From the NCBI RefSeq assembly GCF_026210795.1, contig NC_089431.1:4216001-4280000 (forward strand): a stretch of 64,000 nucleotides of DNA, in the 5' to 3' direction. Below the pieces are notes generated by a model. It saw only the letters and a list, made by a program, of their open reading frames with translations, ran no database searches and was not told the origin of the DNA. This stretch comes from Rhizophagus irregularis. Lineage: Eukaryota. Every line of letters starts with the position of its first letter. Positions within the stretch are counted from its first letter, which is position 1. The position numbers and the translations under genes were made by a program. Shown here piece by piece: positions 4,201 through 18,900 of this stretch.

Positions 4201-6592
4201 TGTCAGTTTCTGGCGGTGAAGTTATGAGTTAATTGTAGCTAACAACTGTTCGCGTGAAAATAAAAATGTGAATAAAAATATGACTTTTAGTAAAAATGTA
4301 AAGTGAAAAACAACTGAACCTTAATTGCACTAATTACAATCGGCTAGTCTCTGGCGGTGAGAACTTCCTTTGTGTCTTTGGATACTTAGAAGAAGCCGTA
4401 GCTTCGTGTCGGCTACCTAGGAAGGACGGAATTGGTAAAAGGAAGTAAAAAAAGCCTTTCTTTCGGCTTTTCGTTCACTAAAGGGAAAGAGTAGAGAATA
4501 TAAATTTTTTTTTTTAAAAAAAAAAAAATTTTCATTGGTTCCACCGGTTCCCAGTTTGGTTCACGAGTCGGATTATTAAATAAATCGAACCGGAACCAGA
4601 ACTGAACCGGAAATTTCAGATTAAAATTTTTTAGAACCAAAACGGATTTTCGGTTCAGTTCCAGTTTGGTTTTCAGATAGAACCGGAATCGTTCGGAGCT
4701 TTATATCAGACTGGTGAGTTGTTTTTTATTTGTTTTGCTTTAAAGAAACATTTTTAACATTTTATTTTTATTTTTTTTTATCTAGAAATGCAGGTTTTTT
4801 GTATATATATGCGAGACTTTTAAAGGTAAATTGTGACTTGTGAGGGCTTTTCTTATTTGTTTAACTTTAAAGAAACATTTCTAACGTTTCATTTTTTATT
4901 TTTATTTTTTTAGGGATGCCAGATTTTTTGTACAAATTGAATTTTTAAAGATATTTGGATTTTTGTACAAAATCTTTCACTCTGGACTTACAATGGTTTC
5001 CATTTCCTAGTAATTATTAATATATATTAAATAAAAAATAGTTGGAATTTCGTGATTATGATGTTTAAACTATACTTTAATTTGTTATATTTTAAATTCC
5101 ATATTATATATTATTATATGTAACTTATTTCTAAATTTTAATAATTAATTTTTTTATTAGGAAATTTTACTTTGTATATATTTTTTATTTTTTTTTACTT
5201 TAATAAAACTGCAAATGCGCTGCGGAAAAAAAAAAAAAAAATAATCAATTTTTTCTACTTTTTATACAAATTTCAATTTAAATATTTAACTAAATCATAT
5301 AATGATCTATAAGATAACTTTATATTGGAAAAAACTACATCATTTATGATCTGCAATCTTTATATTTTTCTATTTCTTTCATCAAATATTTAATTATTTA
5401 ATTTATATAATATAACTACCTTCAATTATTTATTATTTATTTGCAATTAAAGAATTTATATAAAAAAAATACAAGCAATTTGCAATTTTATAATTTTATA
5501 AAAAACATTGTTAATAGCAAGATTTTACCCAAACTATAAAAATTATTTCCTGAATGTTTGCTATATTTACTAATATTAATTTCATTATACTCGGTTTAGA
5601 ATTGAATTTAGATTTAAATAATATGATAAATTACAAAAAAAAGTCAAAAGCAGTAATATAATATTATAACATAAAAATAATTCTAAAATTTAATAATTTA
5701 ATATTAAAATGATTTAGAATCAAGTTTATTAGTTACATATTTATTAATTTACCTAAAGATAGATATTTTATATAGGTCTAACAAATTCTTAATTAACAAA
5801 TCAAACCGGTCATATGGTGAATTGTTATATAATATACCAAACTAGTTTTCTGTTTTAGATAATTTGGGCCAAAATTGTAGTGCTGGCAGAAATTATATTT
5901 TCGATAATCCTGGCCAACACTATAAATTCGGTGTATAGTCACATGACTGTTCGTTATAGAAAATATGATTGGGAACTTTGCAGGACCTCATAAAAAAAAA
6001 ATATCGCAAAAATAAGCCCCTTCCAAACTTTTCATTTTGTTCACTTAAAAAAAAGGGTGTTTATTGATTTTATGGAACAATTTAAATTTTATATTTATCA
6101 GTAATAAGTTAATAATATCACGCGTGGTATATTCATAATCTCTTGATTCCTCAAAAATATTCTTTTATTAAATCCGAATATTTGAATAAACAAATAAAGT
6201 AATAATTTCTTTATTTAATAATGATAAAAATTGACATTAATTTCTATAAGTTAATATGGTGTAAAAATAATAGTTATTTGTTTATATAGCCACTTTAAAC
6301 ATATGCCGAAAAACCAATATTCATTTCAAGATCACAGTGGCAAAGGAATGCAAAATTGAATTTATACGTCGACTTTTCATCTGTAAACTATTCTTTCGTA
6401 ATATCTTCATCCGTAGTATAGTCTTCATCTTTAGAAATATAGCCTTTCGCGTTTATGTGTTTAATTAGTTTATTCTTATATGTTACTGACTTATAATCGT
6501 CCACTTTGTAATTTTTGTCAATCATATGTAGATTCTGTTTTGATACTCGTCTATTGTCAGCAAAATCAATATTATTTGTTATTCATCTATTG

Positions 6593-7627
6593 TCAGTCAA
6601 ATAAACCAAACCCCATATCTTCGTCATCTGTATTAGACTCTTCTTTTTCTTCTAATTTCGTTTTACGAGGTTTTGATTTACCAATTGGCTTACTATCAGG
6701 ATTCAAATTTAAAAATGTTATTAATAAATCCTTATATAATTCCTTTGGTAAAATTTTCTTATAAGGTAATACTTTATCAGAAAATTCTTTTGAAGTTAAA
6801 TTATAGAATCTTATAAAAGGAATACAATGTTGTAACGTATTCTTTAAAGAATTAAAATCATCTTTTGAATAAGTGGAATGATCTGATGAAAGACCAGGAT
6901 TTTGAGCAAGACCCCATTTAAGAGTATGATCCCATATTTGAACTTCATCCATTTGAAGATTATCACATTGAATAATTGAACTTAAAAGATTTTCCGGAAT
7001 TTTAGAGAAATCTAATGATTCAAATATTTTATCTGGATCTTCAGAAATTAAATTAGTACAATATTTCTGAAGTTCTAAGAAAGAATTATTTTCAAAACTT
7101 GTTTGGTATATTAAATTAAAATTTTGTTCCATCCAATTCGTTTTGTTTGTAATCAAAAAGGATTGTAAACGAGTGACCAATTCTTGAAGACTTAATTCAT
7201 TGGCGGCGATCAAGATTTTAATAATATCTAAAGTATCATATTCTTCCAAAGATAATTTCCCTCCATATAAATACCTAAAATCATTCAACGATTAAAAATA
7301 AATAAATAAATAAATAAATAAAATATATCTAATAATAAGAACGTAAATTTAATTTGTTTATTTCTCTCACCTTAAAATTATTTGAAAAATATCTGGTGAA
7401 ATATTTGGTAATTTAATTTGTACCAAAGTTCCATCATTCTTTTTTTTATTAGTTGATAAAATTCTACGTAAATAAGTAGAACGATAATTTAAAATTACCA
7501 TATGAGCTCGGAATATTTTTACGTAAGGGTCATTACCAACTTCAATAGTAATATCACAATATTCATCATCATCTAAAATTTCAAGTAAATTTTGTGATAA
7601 TTTTTGTAAAAGTTCGTTGTCAGCCAT
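6593..7627 (-). CDS. BTB/POZ-BACK protein ending in a ribosomal P-protein-like C-terminal peptide; exons 7627-7371 and 7274-6593
   Basis: BTB (CDITIEVG..KIFRAHMVILNYRSTY), phase-2 GT-AG intron at FQIILR|YLYGG, BACK (EVQIWDHTLKWG, IRFYNL). C-terminus EEKEESNTDDEDMGFGLFD* confirmed on DNA at 6652-6593. Confidence 0.93.
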
Positions 7628-9089: not shown

Positions 9090-10501
9090 CTAGTTCTTCT
9101 CGTATGAATCGTACCTGTCCGCTGTAGTTCTTCTCGTTTGGAACTCATCACCTGATGAATCGTACCTGTCCGCTGTAGTTCTTCTCGTTTGGATAGAATC
9201 ATCACCTGATGAATCGTACTTGTCCGCTGTAGTTCTTCTCGTTTGGATAGAATCATCACCTGATGAATCGTACTTGTCCGCTGTAGTTCTTCTCGTTTGG
9301 ATAGAATCATCACCTGATGAATCGTACTTGTCCGCTGTAGTTCTTCTCGTTTGGATAGAATCATCACCTGATGAATCGTACCTGTCCGCTGTAGTTCTTC
9401 TCGTTTGGATAGAATCATCACCTGATGAATCGTGCCTGTCCGCTGTAGTTCTTCTCGTTGGGAACTTATTATCTGGTGTATCGCTCATGATCGCTAATTT
9501 CGTTTTGCTATAAAGTTTTTTAGTCATACGAGGTTTTGATTTATCAATTGGCTTGCTATCAGGATTCAAATTTAAAAATGTTGCCAATAAATCCTTATAT
9601 AATTCCTTTGGAAAAATTTTCTTATAAGGTAATACTTTATCATAAAATTCTTTTGAAGTTAAATTATAGAATCTTATAAAAGGAATACAATGTTGTAATG
9701 TATTCTTTAAAGAATTAAGATCATCTTTTGAATAAGTGGAATGATCTGAAGAAAGACCAGGATTTTGAGCAAGACCCCATTTAAGAACATGATCCCATAT
9801 TTGAATTTCATCCATTTGAAGATTATCACATTGAATAATTGAGATTAAAAGATTTTCCGGAATTTTAGAGAAATCTAATGATTCAAGTATTTTATCTGGA
9901 TCTTCAGAAATTAAATTAGTACAATATTTCTGAAGTTCTAAGAAAGAATTATTTTCAAAACTTGTTTGATATATTAAATTAAAATTTTGTTCCATCCAAT
10001 CCATTTTGTTTGTAATCAAAAAGGATTGTAAACGAGTGACCAATTCTTGAAGACTTAATTCATTGGCGGCGACCAAAATTTTAACAATATCTAAAGTATC
10101 ATATTCTTCCAAAGATAATTTCCCTCCATATAAATACCTGAAATCATTTAACGATTAATTAAATAAATAAATAAAATATATTATTAATAAGAACGTATAA
10201 TTTATAATAAATAAAAAATTAATTTGTTTAATTATTTCTCTCACCTTAAAATTATTTGAAAAATTTCAGGTGAAATATTTGGTAATTTAATTTGTACCAA
10301 AGTTCCATCATTCTTTTTTTTATTAGTTGATAAAATTCTACGTAAATAAGTAGAACGATAATTTAAAATTACCATATGAGCTCGGAATATTTTTACGTAA
10401 GGGTCATTACCAACTTCAATAGTAATATCACAATATTCATCATCATCTAAAATTTCAAGTAAATTTTGTGATAATTTTTGTAAAAATTCGTTGTCAGCCA
10501 T
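9090..10501 (-). CDS. BTB/POZ-BACK protein with C-terminal 18-aa tandem repeat; exons 10501-10245 and 10137-9090
   Basis: Near-identical paralog of 6593-7627 through BTB-BACK, with the same intron. Diverges after SKPR/KTKL into (RRTTAD[RK]YDSSGDDSIQT)n. Confidence 0.92.
9092..9459. repeat. 54-bp coding minisatellite, 6 full units plus 1 partial
   Basis: Unit TCATCACCTGATGAATCGTACYTGTCCGCTGTAGTTCTTCTCGTTTGGATAGAA repeats head-to-tail without spacers; the last full unit is 3 bp shorter. Confidence 0.97.
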
Positions 10502-11431: not shown

Positions 11432-13130
11432 ATGAATTTAGGCGCCCAAAAAGTTTCTTTTTTGAGCTTGCTGATCCTTTCTCGGACACCAATAATCTTC
11501 ATTTGTTTTTACACACCAATGATTATCACATGGATTCTACGCCTATTCGATACACATCCACAAGCCATTTGCCTAACACAAAATATCAAATTAGTAAAAT
11601 GCTCACACACTTTTTTACCTTACAAAAAGTTTTACCCTGACGTATTCAACAAAAGTATTTTGGATTGATTCGCCGGAAATTATTGGAACGAATTGACTTC
11701 ATCAAGTCATGTGCATCTAAAAGAACTTTGAAGAACACCATTATACGCACTTTCTTCTCATTCTCTTATAAGCGCTATCGCTTCCATTTTGGCATTTACA
11801 TTCCTTGCAAACACGCTTACTCATCTGGTTCGTTACACTTTCTCACCTGGTGTCATAGCCCGAGCCCTTTCGTTATGTCTTTAAATAGACGCACTTGTGG
11901 TACTCATCAATCTGAATTCTCGAGAAAAGAAATCAATCATCACCTGAAACCTGTGCCTAATTGGAACCCAGGATTTACAAATTCAAAATCTTCACATGCA
12001 AACTTTTTATACGACCTTTGGCAACATCGATGGAAAAATGAAATCTTTTCCAACCGTCTTGGCATTCAATACAATGTCTGTTTTGCAGCCAACAGTAGTA
12101 ATTTCGTGCGAAAGCACCCAGGCGCCTACATTTATAGGAAACACCTTATGAATTTCAAATTCAACCCTAGCAGTAATCCCGCAACAAAACGCAAACAGGA
12201 AACCCGTTTCAAGAGACATTGTGCACGGGTGTTTAAAAACATCAACCCTACATCCCGCACTATGAAAGAGGATAAACTCGCAGCAGGGAGACGTTTTCGC
12301 TTCTTGTTTCATGAATCTCAACACATTTATTCACCTGTTCATCATCTGAAATTCAAACGTTCTTCAAAGGAGAAATTATTACCCGATCCTGATGATTATA
12401 CATTTAATATACCTTACCATTCACTGGAAAATTCCAGTATTACGCCTACAGTTCGTTCACAACCTTTGACATCGTATAGGCCTTCTGGTGCCAACACAAT
12501 CCCCACTATTTGGACGCACAAGAAATCGCGACTCTCGGTGATTTCTTACCACCACTCGGTAAACCCGCCCCTCTTTACTACGGTCATAATCCCGTAGACC
12601 CAACCAAGTTGAACAGTAGTTATTACTTACAATATAACCCTAATCAACCTGATTTACCTCCAAGTATTGAAATACGTATAGCTAACCGCTTAGATTTAGA
12701 CTCATCTGACGCTAACGGTATGGGTACTACACTTAAACATTTTTATCGTCAAGCATTATCAACTCGACAAATCACGGTCTGGACTAAACAGTACCATAAA
12801 TATATGAAACAACCTCCACCACCTCCAATGCCTTCCAAGAAGAAACAGAAGCACAAGTGGAAGAAATGGATGGAAAAGCATCAGGACTATGATGACTTTA
12901 TGAGTAAACCGTACACTTATAAACCCTTTACTCCGGACAAATACCATACAGATCTCTTTGGTCTCGTTTCATACACATCAGACGAGACTAAAACGGTGGA
13001 ATACCACCCTAATAAGAGGGATATTACGACCAATCCTTCTGTTCTGTCTACATCACATGACAATAAACGACCAAGACCAGCGAATAGTTACCTACCCGAC
13101 TCCCTATTTACTAGTCTTAATTCTAATTAA
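11432..13130 (+). pseudogene. Basic, His/Cys-containing protein of unknown function carried by the element, probably one ORF split by two frameshifts (~11650 and ~12505)
   Basis: Three overlapping same-strand ORFs (11432-11668, 11665-12597, 12510-13130). The C-terminal motif TSDETKTVEYHPNKR matches TSDDTKELEQRPNKK in the second copy at ~24580-24625. Confidence 0.6.
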
Positions 13131-13868: not shown

Positions 13869-15967
13869 TTAATTTTGTTCTCTTTTATAAAGAATCTCAT
13901 AATGTGCAGGACGATATAATAAAATTAAAGGTTTTAAATTATTATTATACACGATATCAGGATAAAATTCACGAAAATTAACACGTTCCATCGTATCAGA
14001 TCCATTAATATAACCAATTTCAACTGGAACTTTTAATGCTTTAACTAATGCAATAACATGAAGATGATCAGCTTCTTGATCCATTGCTTCTACAAAGTTA
14101 GTACAAAATTGATCCATATCAATTTCAAATTCTAAAAAAGGTTCATAATCATCACGATATAATTTTAAATAAGCCGCAGTAATTAAACGTAAAAAGTATA
14201 CAATATAACAAGAAATTTCTTCAGCTTGAAACGTTACTAATAACATATCTTCGTCAATTTCATCATCCATAATATTTTTAATTTGTTGTTCAATAATATT
14301 ATAGGCATCTTCATAAATAATTGAACTATATCCGGCTGAAATAAGAAGTGTATTTGTTGCAGCCAAAGTATTAAGTGCAGATTGACAAAGAGCTTTATTT
14401 TTTGAATTTAAAAGTTGTTCAAACCATGCAAACATAAATGCTAAATAATTATAATAATTATGATATTGATTAATTACATGGAAATTCACGGAAATTCACG
14501 GTAACAAGTGAATACATTACCTCTATAAAAACTGTTACCATCACTTCGACAACGTCTTATTTTATTGTATTGTTCTGCCAAGTTCTAACATTATTAATTA
14601 TAAAGAATTAATTCTCATTATCATATAATGTTGATACGCAAAAAGATGATGACAAACCATAATTCTTTGCAGATAAATTTCGCCACTCTCCTCATATTCA
14701 TGATATAACAATTGAATATCCTCTGTTGTACAAACAGGAGGTGTTTCAATTAGATCACTTTCCCAAATCAGTTGTGAACTAATATCAGTTTCCTGTGTGG
14801 CATTTAAGGTATTAGTAGAATTGGAAGTAACTTGCGCAGTATTTGAGGTAGTAGACTGAGAGGTAACCACGGATTCTCGTGTAGTATTTGAAGTAGTAGA
14901 TTGGGAGGTAACTTCGGGTTCTCGTCTAGTATTTAAGGAGGTAGATTGGGAAGCAATTCTTGCTCTCATTGCAGAATTTAAAGGAATAACAATTTTTGTA
15001 TTGATAGGGATTGTCTTGTTTATCCGTGGTTTTGATTGTTTACTACCATCCAGAAAATATTTCAATAATTCTTTGTATAATTCTTTAGGTATAATCTTCT
15101 GATAAGGTAACACTTTATTTGTAAATTCATTAGAAGATAAATTATAAAATCTCACACAAGGAATACATTGTTGTAAAGTATTCTTTAAAGTAATAAAATT
15201 ATCTTTCGTACAATTGGAAGGATCCGAAGGAAGTCCAGGATTTTGAGCGAGACCCCATTTAAGAACATAATCCCATACTTGAACTTCACTAATTTTAAGA
15301 TTATTATTTTGAATGATAGAAATCAAAGATTTTTCTGGTATTGATACAAAATTAGGTGAATTTAAGATCTTTTCCGGTTCGTTAGAAATTAAATCATTAC
15401 AAAATTTTTGAAGAACTGATAATGAATCATTTTCAAAACTTGTTTGATATATGATATTAAAATTTTGTTCCATCCAATTTTTTTTATTTTCAATCAAAAA
15501 AGATTGTAAAAAATCAATTAATTCTTCAAGATTAAAATCGTTAGCAGCTTTCAAAATTTTAATAATATCTGAAGTATCAAATTCATCCAAAGAAAGATTT
15601 CCTCCATAAATATATCTAAATATAAAAAAAAATTAAATAAAAAAAAAATCATTTATAAAAAAAAATGAAATCTATTAATTTTTAAACGTAATTAAATTAT
15701 TCATTCTTACTTTAAAATTATTTGAAAAATATCCGGTAAAATATTTGGTAATTTAATTTGTGTCAAAGTTCCATCATTCTTCTTTTCATTATTTGTTGAT
15801 AAAACATTTTGAAAATAAGGGGAACGACAATTTAAAATTACCATATGAGAATGAAAAATTTTTACGTCAGAATTTTTTCCAACTTCAATTATAATATCAT
15901 GATATTTATTATTATTCACATTTTCAAGTAAATTTTGTGATAATTTAGGTAAAAATTTATCATTCAT
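13869..15967 (-). CDS. BTB/POZ-BACK fused to an otubain (peptidase C65, OTU) domain with catalytic Cys->Ser; exons 15967-15711, 15615-14658, 14584-14521, 14440-13869
   Basis: Canonical GT-AG splicing keeps the frame and yields LLYHEYEESGEIYLQRIM-NLAEQYNKIRRCRSDGNSFYR-AFMFAWFEQLL...YFLRLITAAYL...VEAMDQEADHLHVIAL...LLYRPAHYEILY. This is collinear with OTUB1 (RKTRPDGNCFYRAF; LLYRPGHYDILY). Confidence 0.9.
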
Positions 15968-18900
15968 TATGATCGTAAATTCGTAATTATAAAAAAAAAG
16001 ATTTATATTTAACAATGAAAACGACGGGACGTTTTTTTATAAAAAAAAAAAAAAAAAAATTTAACTTTTTTAAACTTTTAGCTTCTTATGATCTTTACGA
16101 TACCGAATTTAGTTTATCAGTGAAGAATATTCTTATTATACTTTTGCATTGCAGTACATCTTATGCAATGTTTTATAAGGTTCTATGGCGCGAGCAAATT
16201 GTCAATGATCTGCGTGAAAATTTTCATTATGCGTAAAAAAGTATTATATGATCGAAATGTCAAAGAATTTAAATAAGTCGTCATTTAGTTCTTTAATAAG
16301 AAGTTATGGCTTTTTTTCCTTAATAATAATTGATAAGATTTTTTTACTTGATTATCAATTGATTTTCACAAGGAAAAATTTCGTTAAAAATTGAGGTAAA
16401 AAAAATTCGGAGAATCGGTGCTGCATTTTTACGCGTATACTAACGCTAATTGGATACATATTAAATCTTATTTCTTTATATCATAAATAAATTTATATAA
16501 TTATTAAATAGAAGCCTTATAAAAATTGACAATAAAATAAAAGCCTTATAAAAAAAAAATTTTTTTTTTATAGTAGTATTTATTAATCCAAGAATAAATT
16601 AAAAATTTATTTGTCAAAACGGAAGTTTATTTTTACCATCCACTAGAATTTATGCAAAAATCCTATTTTAAGTTAAATAAATGAATTTAATATGAATTTA
16701 TTATTTTCTAAATAAAACTAACTATTAAAAAAATAACCTAATAAATATGAAAGTTAAAAAATAGTTACGTTAATATTTCAACCTTAAAATTAGAAATAAG
16801 TGATTTTTCTCTTTTATGACATATTTTTTTAATATAATAGGACAAATGTTATAACCACGTTTTCTGTAGGATTTTTTTTTATTTAAATCATACTTTTAGA
16901 ACATCATTTTTACAATTTTTTATTTTTTTGTTTTAAAAAAATTAAAATAATAATACTGTAATAGTAAATTAGTTATAATTTTTATAACAAAATAAAATTA
17001 ACATAAGAAAAAAGATATAAAGAATGAAAATGTATATAACAACATAGTATTGAAACTTAAACTTTCAATGTTTAATCTCGAGAAGAACATAGAAGATAGT
17101 GATAAAATATTACCGCTATTGCCAAGTAAAAATTTTGCTATGGCGATTTGGTACTCCTTTTAATAACATTACTAGCTAATTATGTCGGATAAATGGAAAT
17201 AATATAAATCTGACGATAACACTTGTACATTAAAGATACGACCTTGTGAAAGGATAAGATCATTCTGACTAGATGTCACGATCGTCTACGAGAAATATTG
17301 ACGAAGATCTTAATTTGATAATATTAAAGAACATTATATTAGACGAGCCAGTCGAGCCATATTTCTATTCTAGAGCACTATCATGATTAAGAAAAGAGAA
17401 ACTAACTATCGACAAAAGCAAGGATTACTCAAAAGTGATTTGTAGGTTTACAAAAAAAAGTTTTATTGAAATTAATATCCTTCTTTTCATTAATGACAAC
17501 ACGAATAGTACATACCCAAAGCAAATATTCTACCGACAATAATGAAACTATAGATATTTATTGACAATTCTTACATTAGAACTGATAATCTGATAACAGA
17601 TGTTTTTGCGCAAATGATCCCTTTAGGAAGTTTTCTAGTAAATACTGGGTCTCATCAAGAAAAAAAATTATTTTATTAAAATAGCATCATATAGAGAAAG
17701 CTTAATTAGATTGATAATTTTATAATCGAATCAACTTATACTAAAATCCACAGAACAAAAATCTTAGGAATTTAGATAAACAAATTTATTATATATATAT
17801 ATAGACACTGAAACTATCAACTACAGACGCCTATATATATATATACACATATATATAACTTATATAATTATTTAAGGAGATAAAGAGTTTTTAAACCCAA
17901 TTTAAATAATTAAACAAGGACTCAGCATTATGAAGAGAAAGAATAATTATATTTTAATTGTTTAACTAGTTATTTATAGGTTTATATACTTGATTTGATC
18001 ACAATCCATATTTTTATATTCAAAATTCAATATGGTTTACATCTAAAAATTAATTCTAAAGTCCTACAAATATTTTTTTACTATAGAAAGGTTGTTGGAA
18101 TTGTCAAATACATGGAAAAGAAAGTATATGAAGTATAAAGCACAGATAAATTTCTATATAATATACTTGCCTAAAACTACAGACCACCCCTTCGAGAAAT
18201 ATTAATTTCACATCACGTGATAAAAATACCATAGTAATGTACTAATAATAAAACAACTAATAATATATAGAATAGAATTAAAATAGATAAGATAGAATTA
18301 TAAAAACAAAAAATCATAAATATTAAATGCTTTTTTTCTAAAAAATAATAAAATAATAAATATCGCTATTTGATAATGTTTTTTAAAAAATTTAAAAGTC
18401 CAGTGGCAAAATTAACATTTTTACATTAGTTAAAACATATAAATTTTTAGAATAAATTAGAACATAATATCGAGCCTGATAATATTTATCATGATGATGA
18501 CGAAAAGATTGATAATACAATCAGTTTAATTGATCATTAAAATGCTGGATCGTTAATTTTTATATTATATTAGCAATTAATATAGCAGTAATAAAGAGAA
18601 TATAGATAAGAATAATATGAGATGCTTAAAAAAATTAATTCAAAGATACTAGACTAAAACAGGAATTTGCTACAAATACATACAGTATTTGTTATTTATT
18701 GTTATGATCTCAAAGAGTGGGAATTCAAAGCTTTTCATAAACTTCTCATAAAAAAATGGTTATAATTTCTATGTCAAAAATATATATATTATTGCTTTAT
18801 TGCTTAAATTTATTATATAATCTTGACCAATTACGGTTTTCATTAAATTATAGTAAGAAAATAGATGCCTATATATAGATATTTAATTACATTTTAATAA

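Follow-up and report, generated by a model that had tools for sequence, protein, structure and literature searches.

The C-terminal tip of the ribosomal stalk is a short linear binding motif that includes a CK2 serine (PMC11624264, available text). A stalk peptide of 11 residues binds a ribosome-inactivating protein (RIP) with a Kd of about 10-13 uM and a fast off-rate, and the presence of five tails on each ribosome strengthens the interaction (PMC3280276, Table 1). In the alanine scan of that study, RIP binding depends on the five C-terminal residues as well as on an acidic cluster, the first position being dispensable. Stalk tails are also needed for the activation of GCN2, which scales with their number, and GCN2 binds mainly to domain II of uL10, according to the accessible part of PMC6421407.

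BTB proteins represent the second system of relevance. Long-form BTB domains are predicted to dimerise, and substrates are usually hooked by the C-terminal module (PMC1257465, available sections). Loss of the phi-x-E motif abolishes binding between KLHL3 and Cul3, as stated in the available text of PMC3616122, which is also the source of the motif definition. The accessible part of PMC8647823 presents BTB/POZ genes as accessory genes that are strain-specific and occur in high copy number. Neither a BTB-stalk fusion nor the description of a stalk mimic was found in the literature searched (titles and abstract openings, with few subscription papers and no supplements). This agrees with the initial annotation of this locus, which knew of no such fusion.

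Here, we describe a gene of Rhizophagus irregularis in which these two systems meet. The window, i.e., the whole 64-kb stretch of DNA that was analysed, is AT-rich and harbours intron-bearing, tandem BTB and kinase genes. Among these is gene A, a two-exon gene on the minus strand (7627-6593) which encodes P0001, a BTB-BACK protein of 312 amino acids. Exon 1 (7371..7627, minus strand) holds the ATG at 7627 and the N-terminal two thirds of the BTB domain (Pfam BTB, E = 3.9e-12), and is covered by spliced contigs. It is followed by a 96-nt GT-AG intron (7275..7370, minus strand), whose joint is present in the contigs of sequencing runs X3 and X5. Exon 2 (6593..7274, minus strand) encodes the end of the BTB domain, the BACK domain with a helical extension, a basic linker, a stalk-like tail, and the stop codon. 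The 3' untranslated region extends over 6190..6592 (minus strand), with contigs ending at 6208 (X3) and 6190 (X5). P0001 is identical to a public BTB/POZ protein record of Rhizophagus irregularis DAOM 197198, several records that stem from different assemblies contain this sequence, and its 90% cluster has two members.

Other elements of the window were noted as well. On the plus strand, positions 230-2389 hold intron-split open reading frames with a BED zinc finger; the rest of these frames had no Pfam match and, by its motifs, looks like a hAT transposase. An exon of an otubain-like deubiquitinase (13869-14495, minus strand; PF10275, E = 9e-43) immediately follows a third BTB-BACK gene (14598-16036), and is possibly a neighbour of this gene or its fused C-terminal part. 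Meanwhile, two long open reading frames of 318 and 216 amino acids, located between BTB genes (11641-13130, plus strand), had no significant Pfam match.

Runs X3 and X5 come from two studies, and their RNA nature, which could only be guessed, was judged by splicing. In both, the 96-nt intron is removed, depth is zero within the intron and almost nil in its flanks, and thus they behave as transcripts. The bin that covers the intron (7291-7361) had zero depth in all four sequencing runs mapped. The contigs of X3 (6208-6767) and X5 (6190-6752) each run gap-free through the BACK-tail junction, the terminal motif, and the stop, with one difference and none, respectively. The single difference, at 6577 in the 3' untranslated region, may be a strain variant, an error, or the result of editing. 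Runs X15 and X16 hold relatives only, at low depth; that the tail is uncovered there is a matter of this low depth and not evidence. Since spliced contigs from two studies bridge the junction and the stop without gaps, it is unlikely that the gene is silent or that the assembly is faulty here. Gene A is a real BTB-BACK gene, transcribed and spliced, and its product ends in a P-stalk tip that is in frame and has a free end. The initial annotation had named a silent or spliced-around tail and a misassembly as outcomes that would speak against its reading, and the public records and the contigs of the two studies point the other way on both counts.

An older annotated model, P0002, places a potential 61-nt intron at 6551..6611 (minus strand), whose splicing would take away the stop together with the five residues before it. 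A main or regulated product spliced at 6611-6551 would drop the hydrophobic tip and read on for 53 residues, so that the tail would be either a splice switch or the product of a wrong gene model. The segment does possess a GT, a branch-point-like word, and an AG, and the frame stays open upon its removal. However, the X3 and X5 contigs cross these positions unspliced and at even depth, with the true intron spliced out, and the 6611/6551 joint is absent from the four runs mapped, as judged at the level of contigs, from which rare isoforms are dropped. We consider this explanation very unlikely.

The stalk-like tail is made of 19 codons and the TGA (6593..6652, minus strand), and residues 295-312 of the protein are predicted to be disordered, with pLDDT below 50. 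The minus-strand frame 7291-6593 closes with these 19 residues, and the TGA at 6595-6593 is in frame with BACK. When the last 30 residues were compared with the PDB, 27 of the 28 matches at E<=10 were P0/P1/P2 chains (best E of 5e-4). Together, the frame and these matches confirm the observation from which this analysis departed, namely a 19-residue P-stalk C-terminus with a free end that is in frame with BACK. The Pfam family Ribosomal_60s (PF00428) matched residues 288-311 with an E-value of 1e-3 and 20.1 bits, which is under its cut-off of 28.1 bits. At the centre of the tail is a stalk tip of 11 residues which, together with the stop (6593..6628, minus strand), would be the minimal donor-derived part, and which is equivalent to the C11 peptide in the available text of PMC3280276.

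The terminal motif is unique to gene A among the six frames of the 64-kb window. Given the base frequencies of the window, the chance of the last eight residues plus the stop is 1.6e-13 per site, suggesting that the motif derives from stalk-tail sequence. Judged from the sequence, capture from a stalk-tail coding sequence stands as the sole plausible origin of the tip, and the captured stalk peptide proposed by the initial annotation would hence be retained. Chance resemblance, or a chimaera introduced by the assembly of what is a repetitive multigene region, would be the alternative. Against it stand the low chance per site, the agreement among records from different assemblies, the older model P0002, which shares the junction, the bridging contigs of two studies, and the presence of at least half of the stretch's words in 14 of the 24 runs listed. 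This alternative is largely refuted, and we assign it next to no probability.

The tail departs from typical stalk tails in its details. The distance between serine and methionine is six in gene A; among 117 eukaryotic stalk matches this spacing is three in 71 and six in 10. The CK2 serine three residues before the methionine is thus absent from the tail of gene A, where a threonine in an acidic context may substitute for it. Codon usage is also unusual, with GGG for the first glycine found in 1 and the TGA stop in 3 of the 117 eukaryotic matches, counts in which some codon choices were fixed by the search pattern itself.

These peculiarities bring up the possibility of a second-hand donor, i.e., an old pseudogene of a stalk protein, or a protein outside the ribosome that had acquired a stalk-like tail earlier. 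This proposal concerns the origin of the tail only and is compatible with our preferred explanation of its function. The atypical codons and spacing would fit it, non-ribosomal carriers of the motif exist, and the 19-mer occurs in no other protein among seven candidates of 71-2000 amino acids. On the other hand, no such donor was found, and the linker of the BTB gene would also explain the atypical spacer. We see only a slim chance for this route.

The body of the protein is that of a BTB-BACK protein. BTB was recognized in the full protein (PF00651, E = 2e-20), and BACK (PF07707) reached 22.8 bits on exon 2, above the cut-off of 20.9, and 18.8 bits on the full protein. The structure model (pLDDT 85, pTM 0.77) displays a BTB domain and a helical BACK up to residue 274. 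The predicted fold matches KBTBD2, KLHL11, KLHL22, A55, and SPOP (best E of 1.7e-8, TM of about 0.5-0.57), with KBTBD2 and KLHL11 being the closest over 260-295 columns. A helix at residues 3-18 is predicted at low confidence (pLDDT of about 50), with a sequence conserved in relatives, and this N-terminal helix is predicted to be of the type typical of BTB dimers.

Whether P0001 engages Cul3 is a separate matter. The phi-x-E motif of the alpha3-beta4 loop is absent from P0001 and present in only 2 of the 44 aligned relatives that have this loop. Yet the P0001 loop aligns well with that of gigaxonin, a Cul3 adaptor whose aligned loop shows no phi-x-E either. As judged from these alignments, Cul3 binding is doubtful but not to be dismissed. 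The description of gene A as a BTB-BACK Cul3 adaptor was thus upheld by Pfam and by the fold as far as BTB-BACK is concerned, and not by the Cul3 motif.

The initial annotation had envisioned a Cul3 adaptor that serves as a bivalent bait and would trap and ubiquitinate plant or bacterial RIPs. Its claim that the tail holds the handle used by RIPs agrees with sequence comparison: every residue that RIP binding cannot do without in the alanine scan of PMC3280276, as far as the available text goes, is kept in the tail of gene A, and it is the first position that is dispensable there. The predicted BTB-BACK fold, whose N-terminal helix is of the kind found in dimers and whose loop aligns with that of gigaxonin, would also suit such a decoy. 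Against it, the tail is not conserved among the 155 proteins examined, though one would expect a module used in defence to spread or to arise repeatedly, and its affinity would be weak and transient next to the large ribosomal pool (PMC3280276, available text). Moreover, the phi-x-E motif, critical in KLHL3 (PMC3616122, available text), is missing, and RIPs that act on AM fungi are not a topic in the titles and abstract openings of the literature matches listed. A RIP decoy accordingly has a low probability in our assessment.

A selected translation regulator is somewhat easier to conceive, and still improbable. In such a scenario, the tail would bring the fungus's own eEF1A, eEF2, eIF5B, or GCN2 to a BTB-BACK dimer for sequestration, turnover, or signalling. 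The tail is intact and expressed, the stalk tip is a short linear binding motif (PMC11624264, available text), GCN2 activation rises with the number of tails (PMC6421407, available text), the fold is nearest to the Cul3 adaptors KBTBD2 and KLHL11, and the clients are always in the cytosol. However, the tail is found in no relative examined, phi-x-E is missing here and in 42 of the 44 relatives with the loop, and the serine-to-methionine spacing is six where three is usual. In addition, GCN2 binds chiefly to domain II of uL10 (PMC6421407, available text), which P0001 does not have.

The distribution of the tail among relatives provided insights into its age. Among 155 annotated proteins examined, the terminal motif was found in P0001 only. 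Three partly overlapping groups make up this set, namely P0002, 44 representatives, and the 120 best of the 672 homologues; unannotated loci and the 552 further homologues lie outside this count, and the word-indexed search for tails misses diverged ones. Searches with the tail region returned P0001 as one of two candidates, and P0001 plus a tail-less fragment from R. diaphanus as two of seven. The ESM Atlas yielded no usable match to the tail once ribosomal families were excluded. In a tree of 30 rows, P0001 was nested among tail-less rows on a branch of 0.03, grouping with P0047 (support 94/89), then with P0048 (98/91), within a clade of seven rows (100/98). Proteins labelled as belonging to isolates A1, A4, B3, and C2 occur among the best 120 of the 672 homologues; none of them ranks within the subclade of gene A and its paralogue gene B, and none is tailed. 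As all close relatives examined are without it, the tail is likely a recent product of gene shuffling. The conservation in another isolate or species whose lack the initial annotation had listed as counting against its model was not seen, as the tail is absent from every other protein among the 155.

Gene B, a tandem paralogue that encodes P0047 (9090..10501, minus strand), lies 2.9 kb from gene A and carries a different, repetitive tail. Aligned by blastn, the two genes are 91% identical until about 6656, have no match beyond it, and are 85% identical once more from 6382 onwards. This leaves a segment of about 270 bp in gene A (6383..6651, minus strand), which includes the tail, without a counterpart in gene B. 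The corresponding slot of gene B is occupied by an array at 9104-9463, made of 6.7 copies of a 54-bp unit that encodes an 18-residue repeat. Over 285 codons, the genes differ by 8 synonymous and 17 non-synonymous changes (dN/dS of about 0.5). This ratio and the tail-less relatives in the tree suggest that the tail was gained recently and under loose constraint.

Variation at this position is not restricted to the pair. P0047, P0048, P0049-P0052 of R. clarus, and P0003 of R. diaphanus diverge straight after the common linker into unrelated tails, and more distant members display matches to TLDc, HMG/YABBY, Sel1, AbfB, and UBA in their C-terminal slot. The slot is hypervariable, since both the nearest relatives and the distant members carry differing tails or domains in it. 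In one BTB-BACK relative, P0013, the tail has repeated FG-containing motifs, which by eye only is nucleoporin-like. A frame of 64 residues behind the stop of gene A was considered as a remnant of TLDc and not upheld (E of 0.07, with 52 of 2000 shuffles equally good).

The extent of the captured sequence may be smaller than 19 codons. The linker of P0048 resembles the first half of the 19-mer of gene A, and for this reason the captured part may be the last 11 codons only. The initial claim on the 19-mer therefore stands for the stalk tip, and perhaps not for a stalk origin of the whole, part of which may come from the linker of the BTB gene itself. Two directly repeated copies of a 9-bp sequence (6632-6624 and 6385-6377) delimit a stretch (6377..6632, minus strand) that contains the last 11 codons and about 200 bp behind them. 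This is a possible target-site duplication and suggestive only, as 231 of 20000 shuffles gave a comparable result with windows chosen post hoc. As for the other marks of a captured gene fragment of the retrocopy or Pack-MULE type, no poly(A) was observed in the segment, and no bracketing pair was found among the 25 longest of 242 inverted pairs.

The source of the tail was also sought in metagenomes. A DNA pattern with the exact spacing of the gene A tail had no metagenome matches. A looser pattern retrieved at least 116 metagenome loci; none of those listed was recognisably from an AM fungus or matched the 3' segment. Comparison of gene A with 118 stalk-motif loci of other organisms gave matches only to the codons or to adjoining AT-rich bases, the best being 94 nt at 72%. 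The donor gene was not found in these metagenome scans, a comparison outside of which lie the organism's own RPP genes. Many of the P-protein genes retrieved (L007, L014, L030, L036, L059, L093, L114, and others) have an apparent tiny last exon that encodes the tail only, behind an AG acceptor. We propose that a tail encoded in this way, in the genes of these other organisms, would be easy to shuffle.

The same motif terminates proteins that are unrelated to both stalk and BTB proteins. Two of the at least 116 metagenome loci (L035:91-1530 and L069:58-1359) encode VWA proteins which are 81% identical, both end in the stalk motif, and differ in silent codons. The ESM Atlas places one of them among VWA clusters, and the literature searched held nothing on the stalk motif in combination with von Willebrand. 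An open reading frame of 98 amino acids that ends in the motif (L001:1231-1527, L002, L119/L120:6001-6297) is shared by two viral contigs (70 and 187 kb) that are almost identical, and lies near papain, WH2, and GT25 genes; no further relatives were found in viral_contigs.

Matches in the prokaryote collection were seven in total. Six of them were ordinary eukaryotic P proteins on short contigs, which we read as contamination. The seventh, from a Chlamydiia bin (G001), is an orphan of 214 amino acids with the exact motif that lies between bacterial genes (L121:809-1453), and the Fe-S assembly and ferredoxin genes adjoining it make the contig look bacterial. A second chlamydial orphan (L132:940-1530, G106) has the motif with one substitution, so that carriers make up 2 of the 301 genomes of the phylum, and two chlamydial relatives of the L121 protein are without the tail. 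On the basis of their sequence, the orphans of G001 and G106 are candidate host-directed stalk mimics. As all these carriers were found by motif search, they demonstrate recurrence and not conservation. Their existence on unrelated proteins indicates that stalk-like tails can be kept off the ribosome.

Based on these findings, we postulate that gene A results from a recent and apparently isolate-limited capture of a stalk tip into the hypervariable slot of an expanded family, with likely weak binding of stalk clients and a probably near-neutral effect; signs of selection were not seen. This is the account that we consider probable. The recent age of the capture is likely, and its restriction to an isolate apparent, from the comparison of sequences. 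On the branch that leads to gene A alone, the variable C-terminal slot would have acquired the final 11-19 codons of a ribosomal stalk tail. Either ectopic recombination or repair from a template would have brought this about, possibly helped by the similarity of the acidic linker to stalk sequence. A BTB dimer is predicted to carry two flexible tails, which would touch eEF1A, eEF2, eIF5B, GCN2, or RIPs transiently and with micromolar affinity. As the five tails on every ribosome would outnumber those of gene A, its protein would be of consequence only when able to recruit a ligase as well, and we doubt that it does.

Some observations speak against this account. Most random insertions would not give a tail that is in frame, complete, and at the very end of the protein, as this one is, and two studies show it to be expressed. 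The atypical codons fit silent drift under constraint at the protein level, although one or two codons prove nothing, and the motif is also found at the end of VWA, viral, and chlamydial proteins that are unrelated. We consider it possible, if rather unlikely, that the protein works as a decoy or regulates translation. In its broadest form, a young and working stalk mimic, the two tips of a BTB-BACK dimer would catch translation GTPases, GCN2, or RIPs and deliver them to a ligase, as one of several independent mimics (fungal, viral, chlamydial, and VWA) that would form an undescribed class. We hold this broader proposal to be unlikely as well.

The implications differ between these outcomes. 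If the tail works, gene A would represent a natural reuse of a ribosomal docking peptide as the substrate hook of a ubiquitin-ligase-type scaffold, and, among the numerous BTB genes of AM fungi, would be the first with a candidate function. Should the tail be neutral instead, as in the capture scenario that we favour, gene A would be a snapshot of a BTB family sampling new C-terminal modules, down to a motif of 11 residues. Meanwhile, the occurrence of the same end in viral, chlamydial, and VWA proteins turns stalk mimicry into a general question that can be tested.

Gene A shares features with four groups of proteins. Like the eukaryotic stalk proteins uL10/P0, P1, and P2 (PF00428), it has an acidic, MGFGLFD-type end and a free C-terminus; in contrast to them, it has no stalk dimerisation or rRNA-binding domain, its spacer is longer, and its codons are atypical. 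P0001 is not a ribosomal stalk protein, as its body is BTB-BACK and the N-terminal uL10 or P1/P2 dimerisation domain is missing. Its predicted fold is like that of the BTB-BACK Cul3 adaptors KBTBD2, KLHL11, KLHL3, gigaxonin, SPOP, and vaccinia A55, but it is devoid of Kelch, MATH, and PHR domains and of phi-x-E, and its would-be substrate module is a disordered peptide. With the VWA proteins, the viral open reading frame, and the chlamydial orphans it has the terminal motif in common, while bodies and hosts are unrelated. The closest likeness is to the expanded BTB-BACK(-TLDc) family of Glomeromycota, with which gene A shares the BTB and BACK core (65-93% identity to the best 120 of 672 homologues), the tandem arrangement, and the variable C-terminal slot. 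Unlike in any other member examined, this slot holds a stalk tip, in place of TLDc or another folded domain. Gene A belongs to the Glomeromycota BTB-BACK family, and what is new is the stalk tip in its slot.
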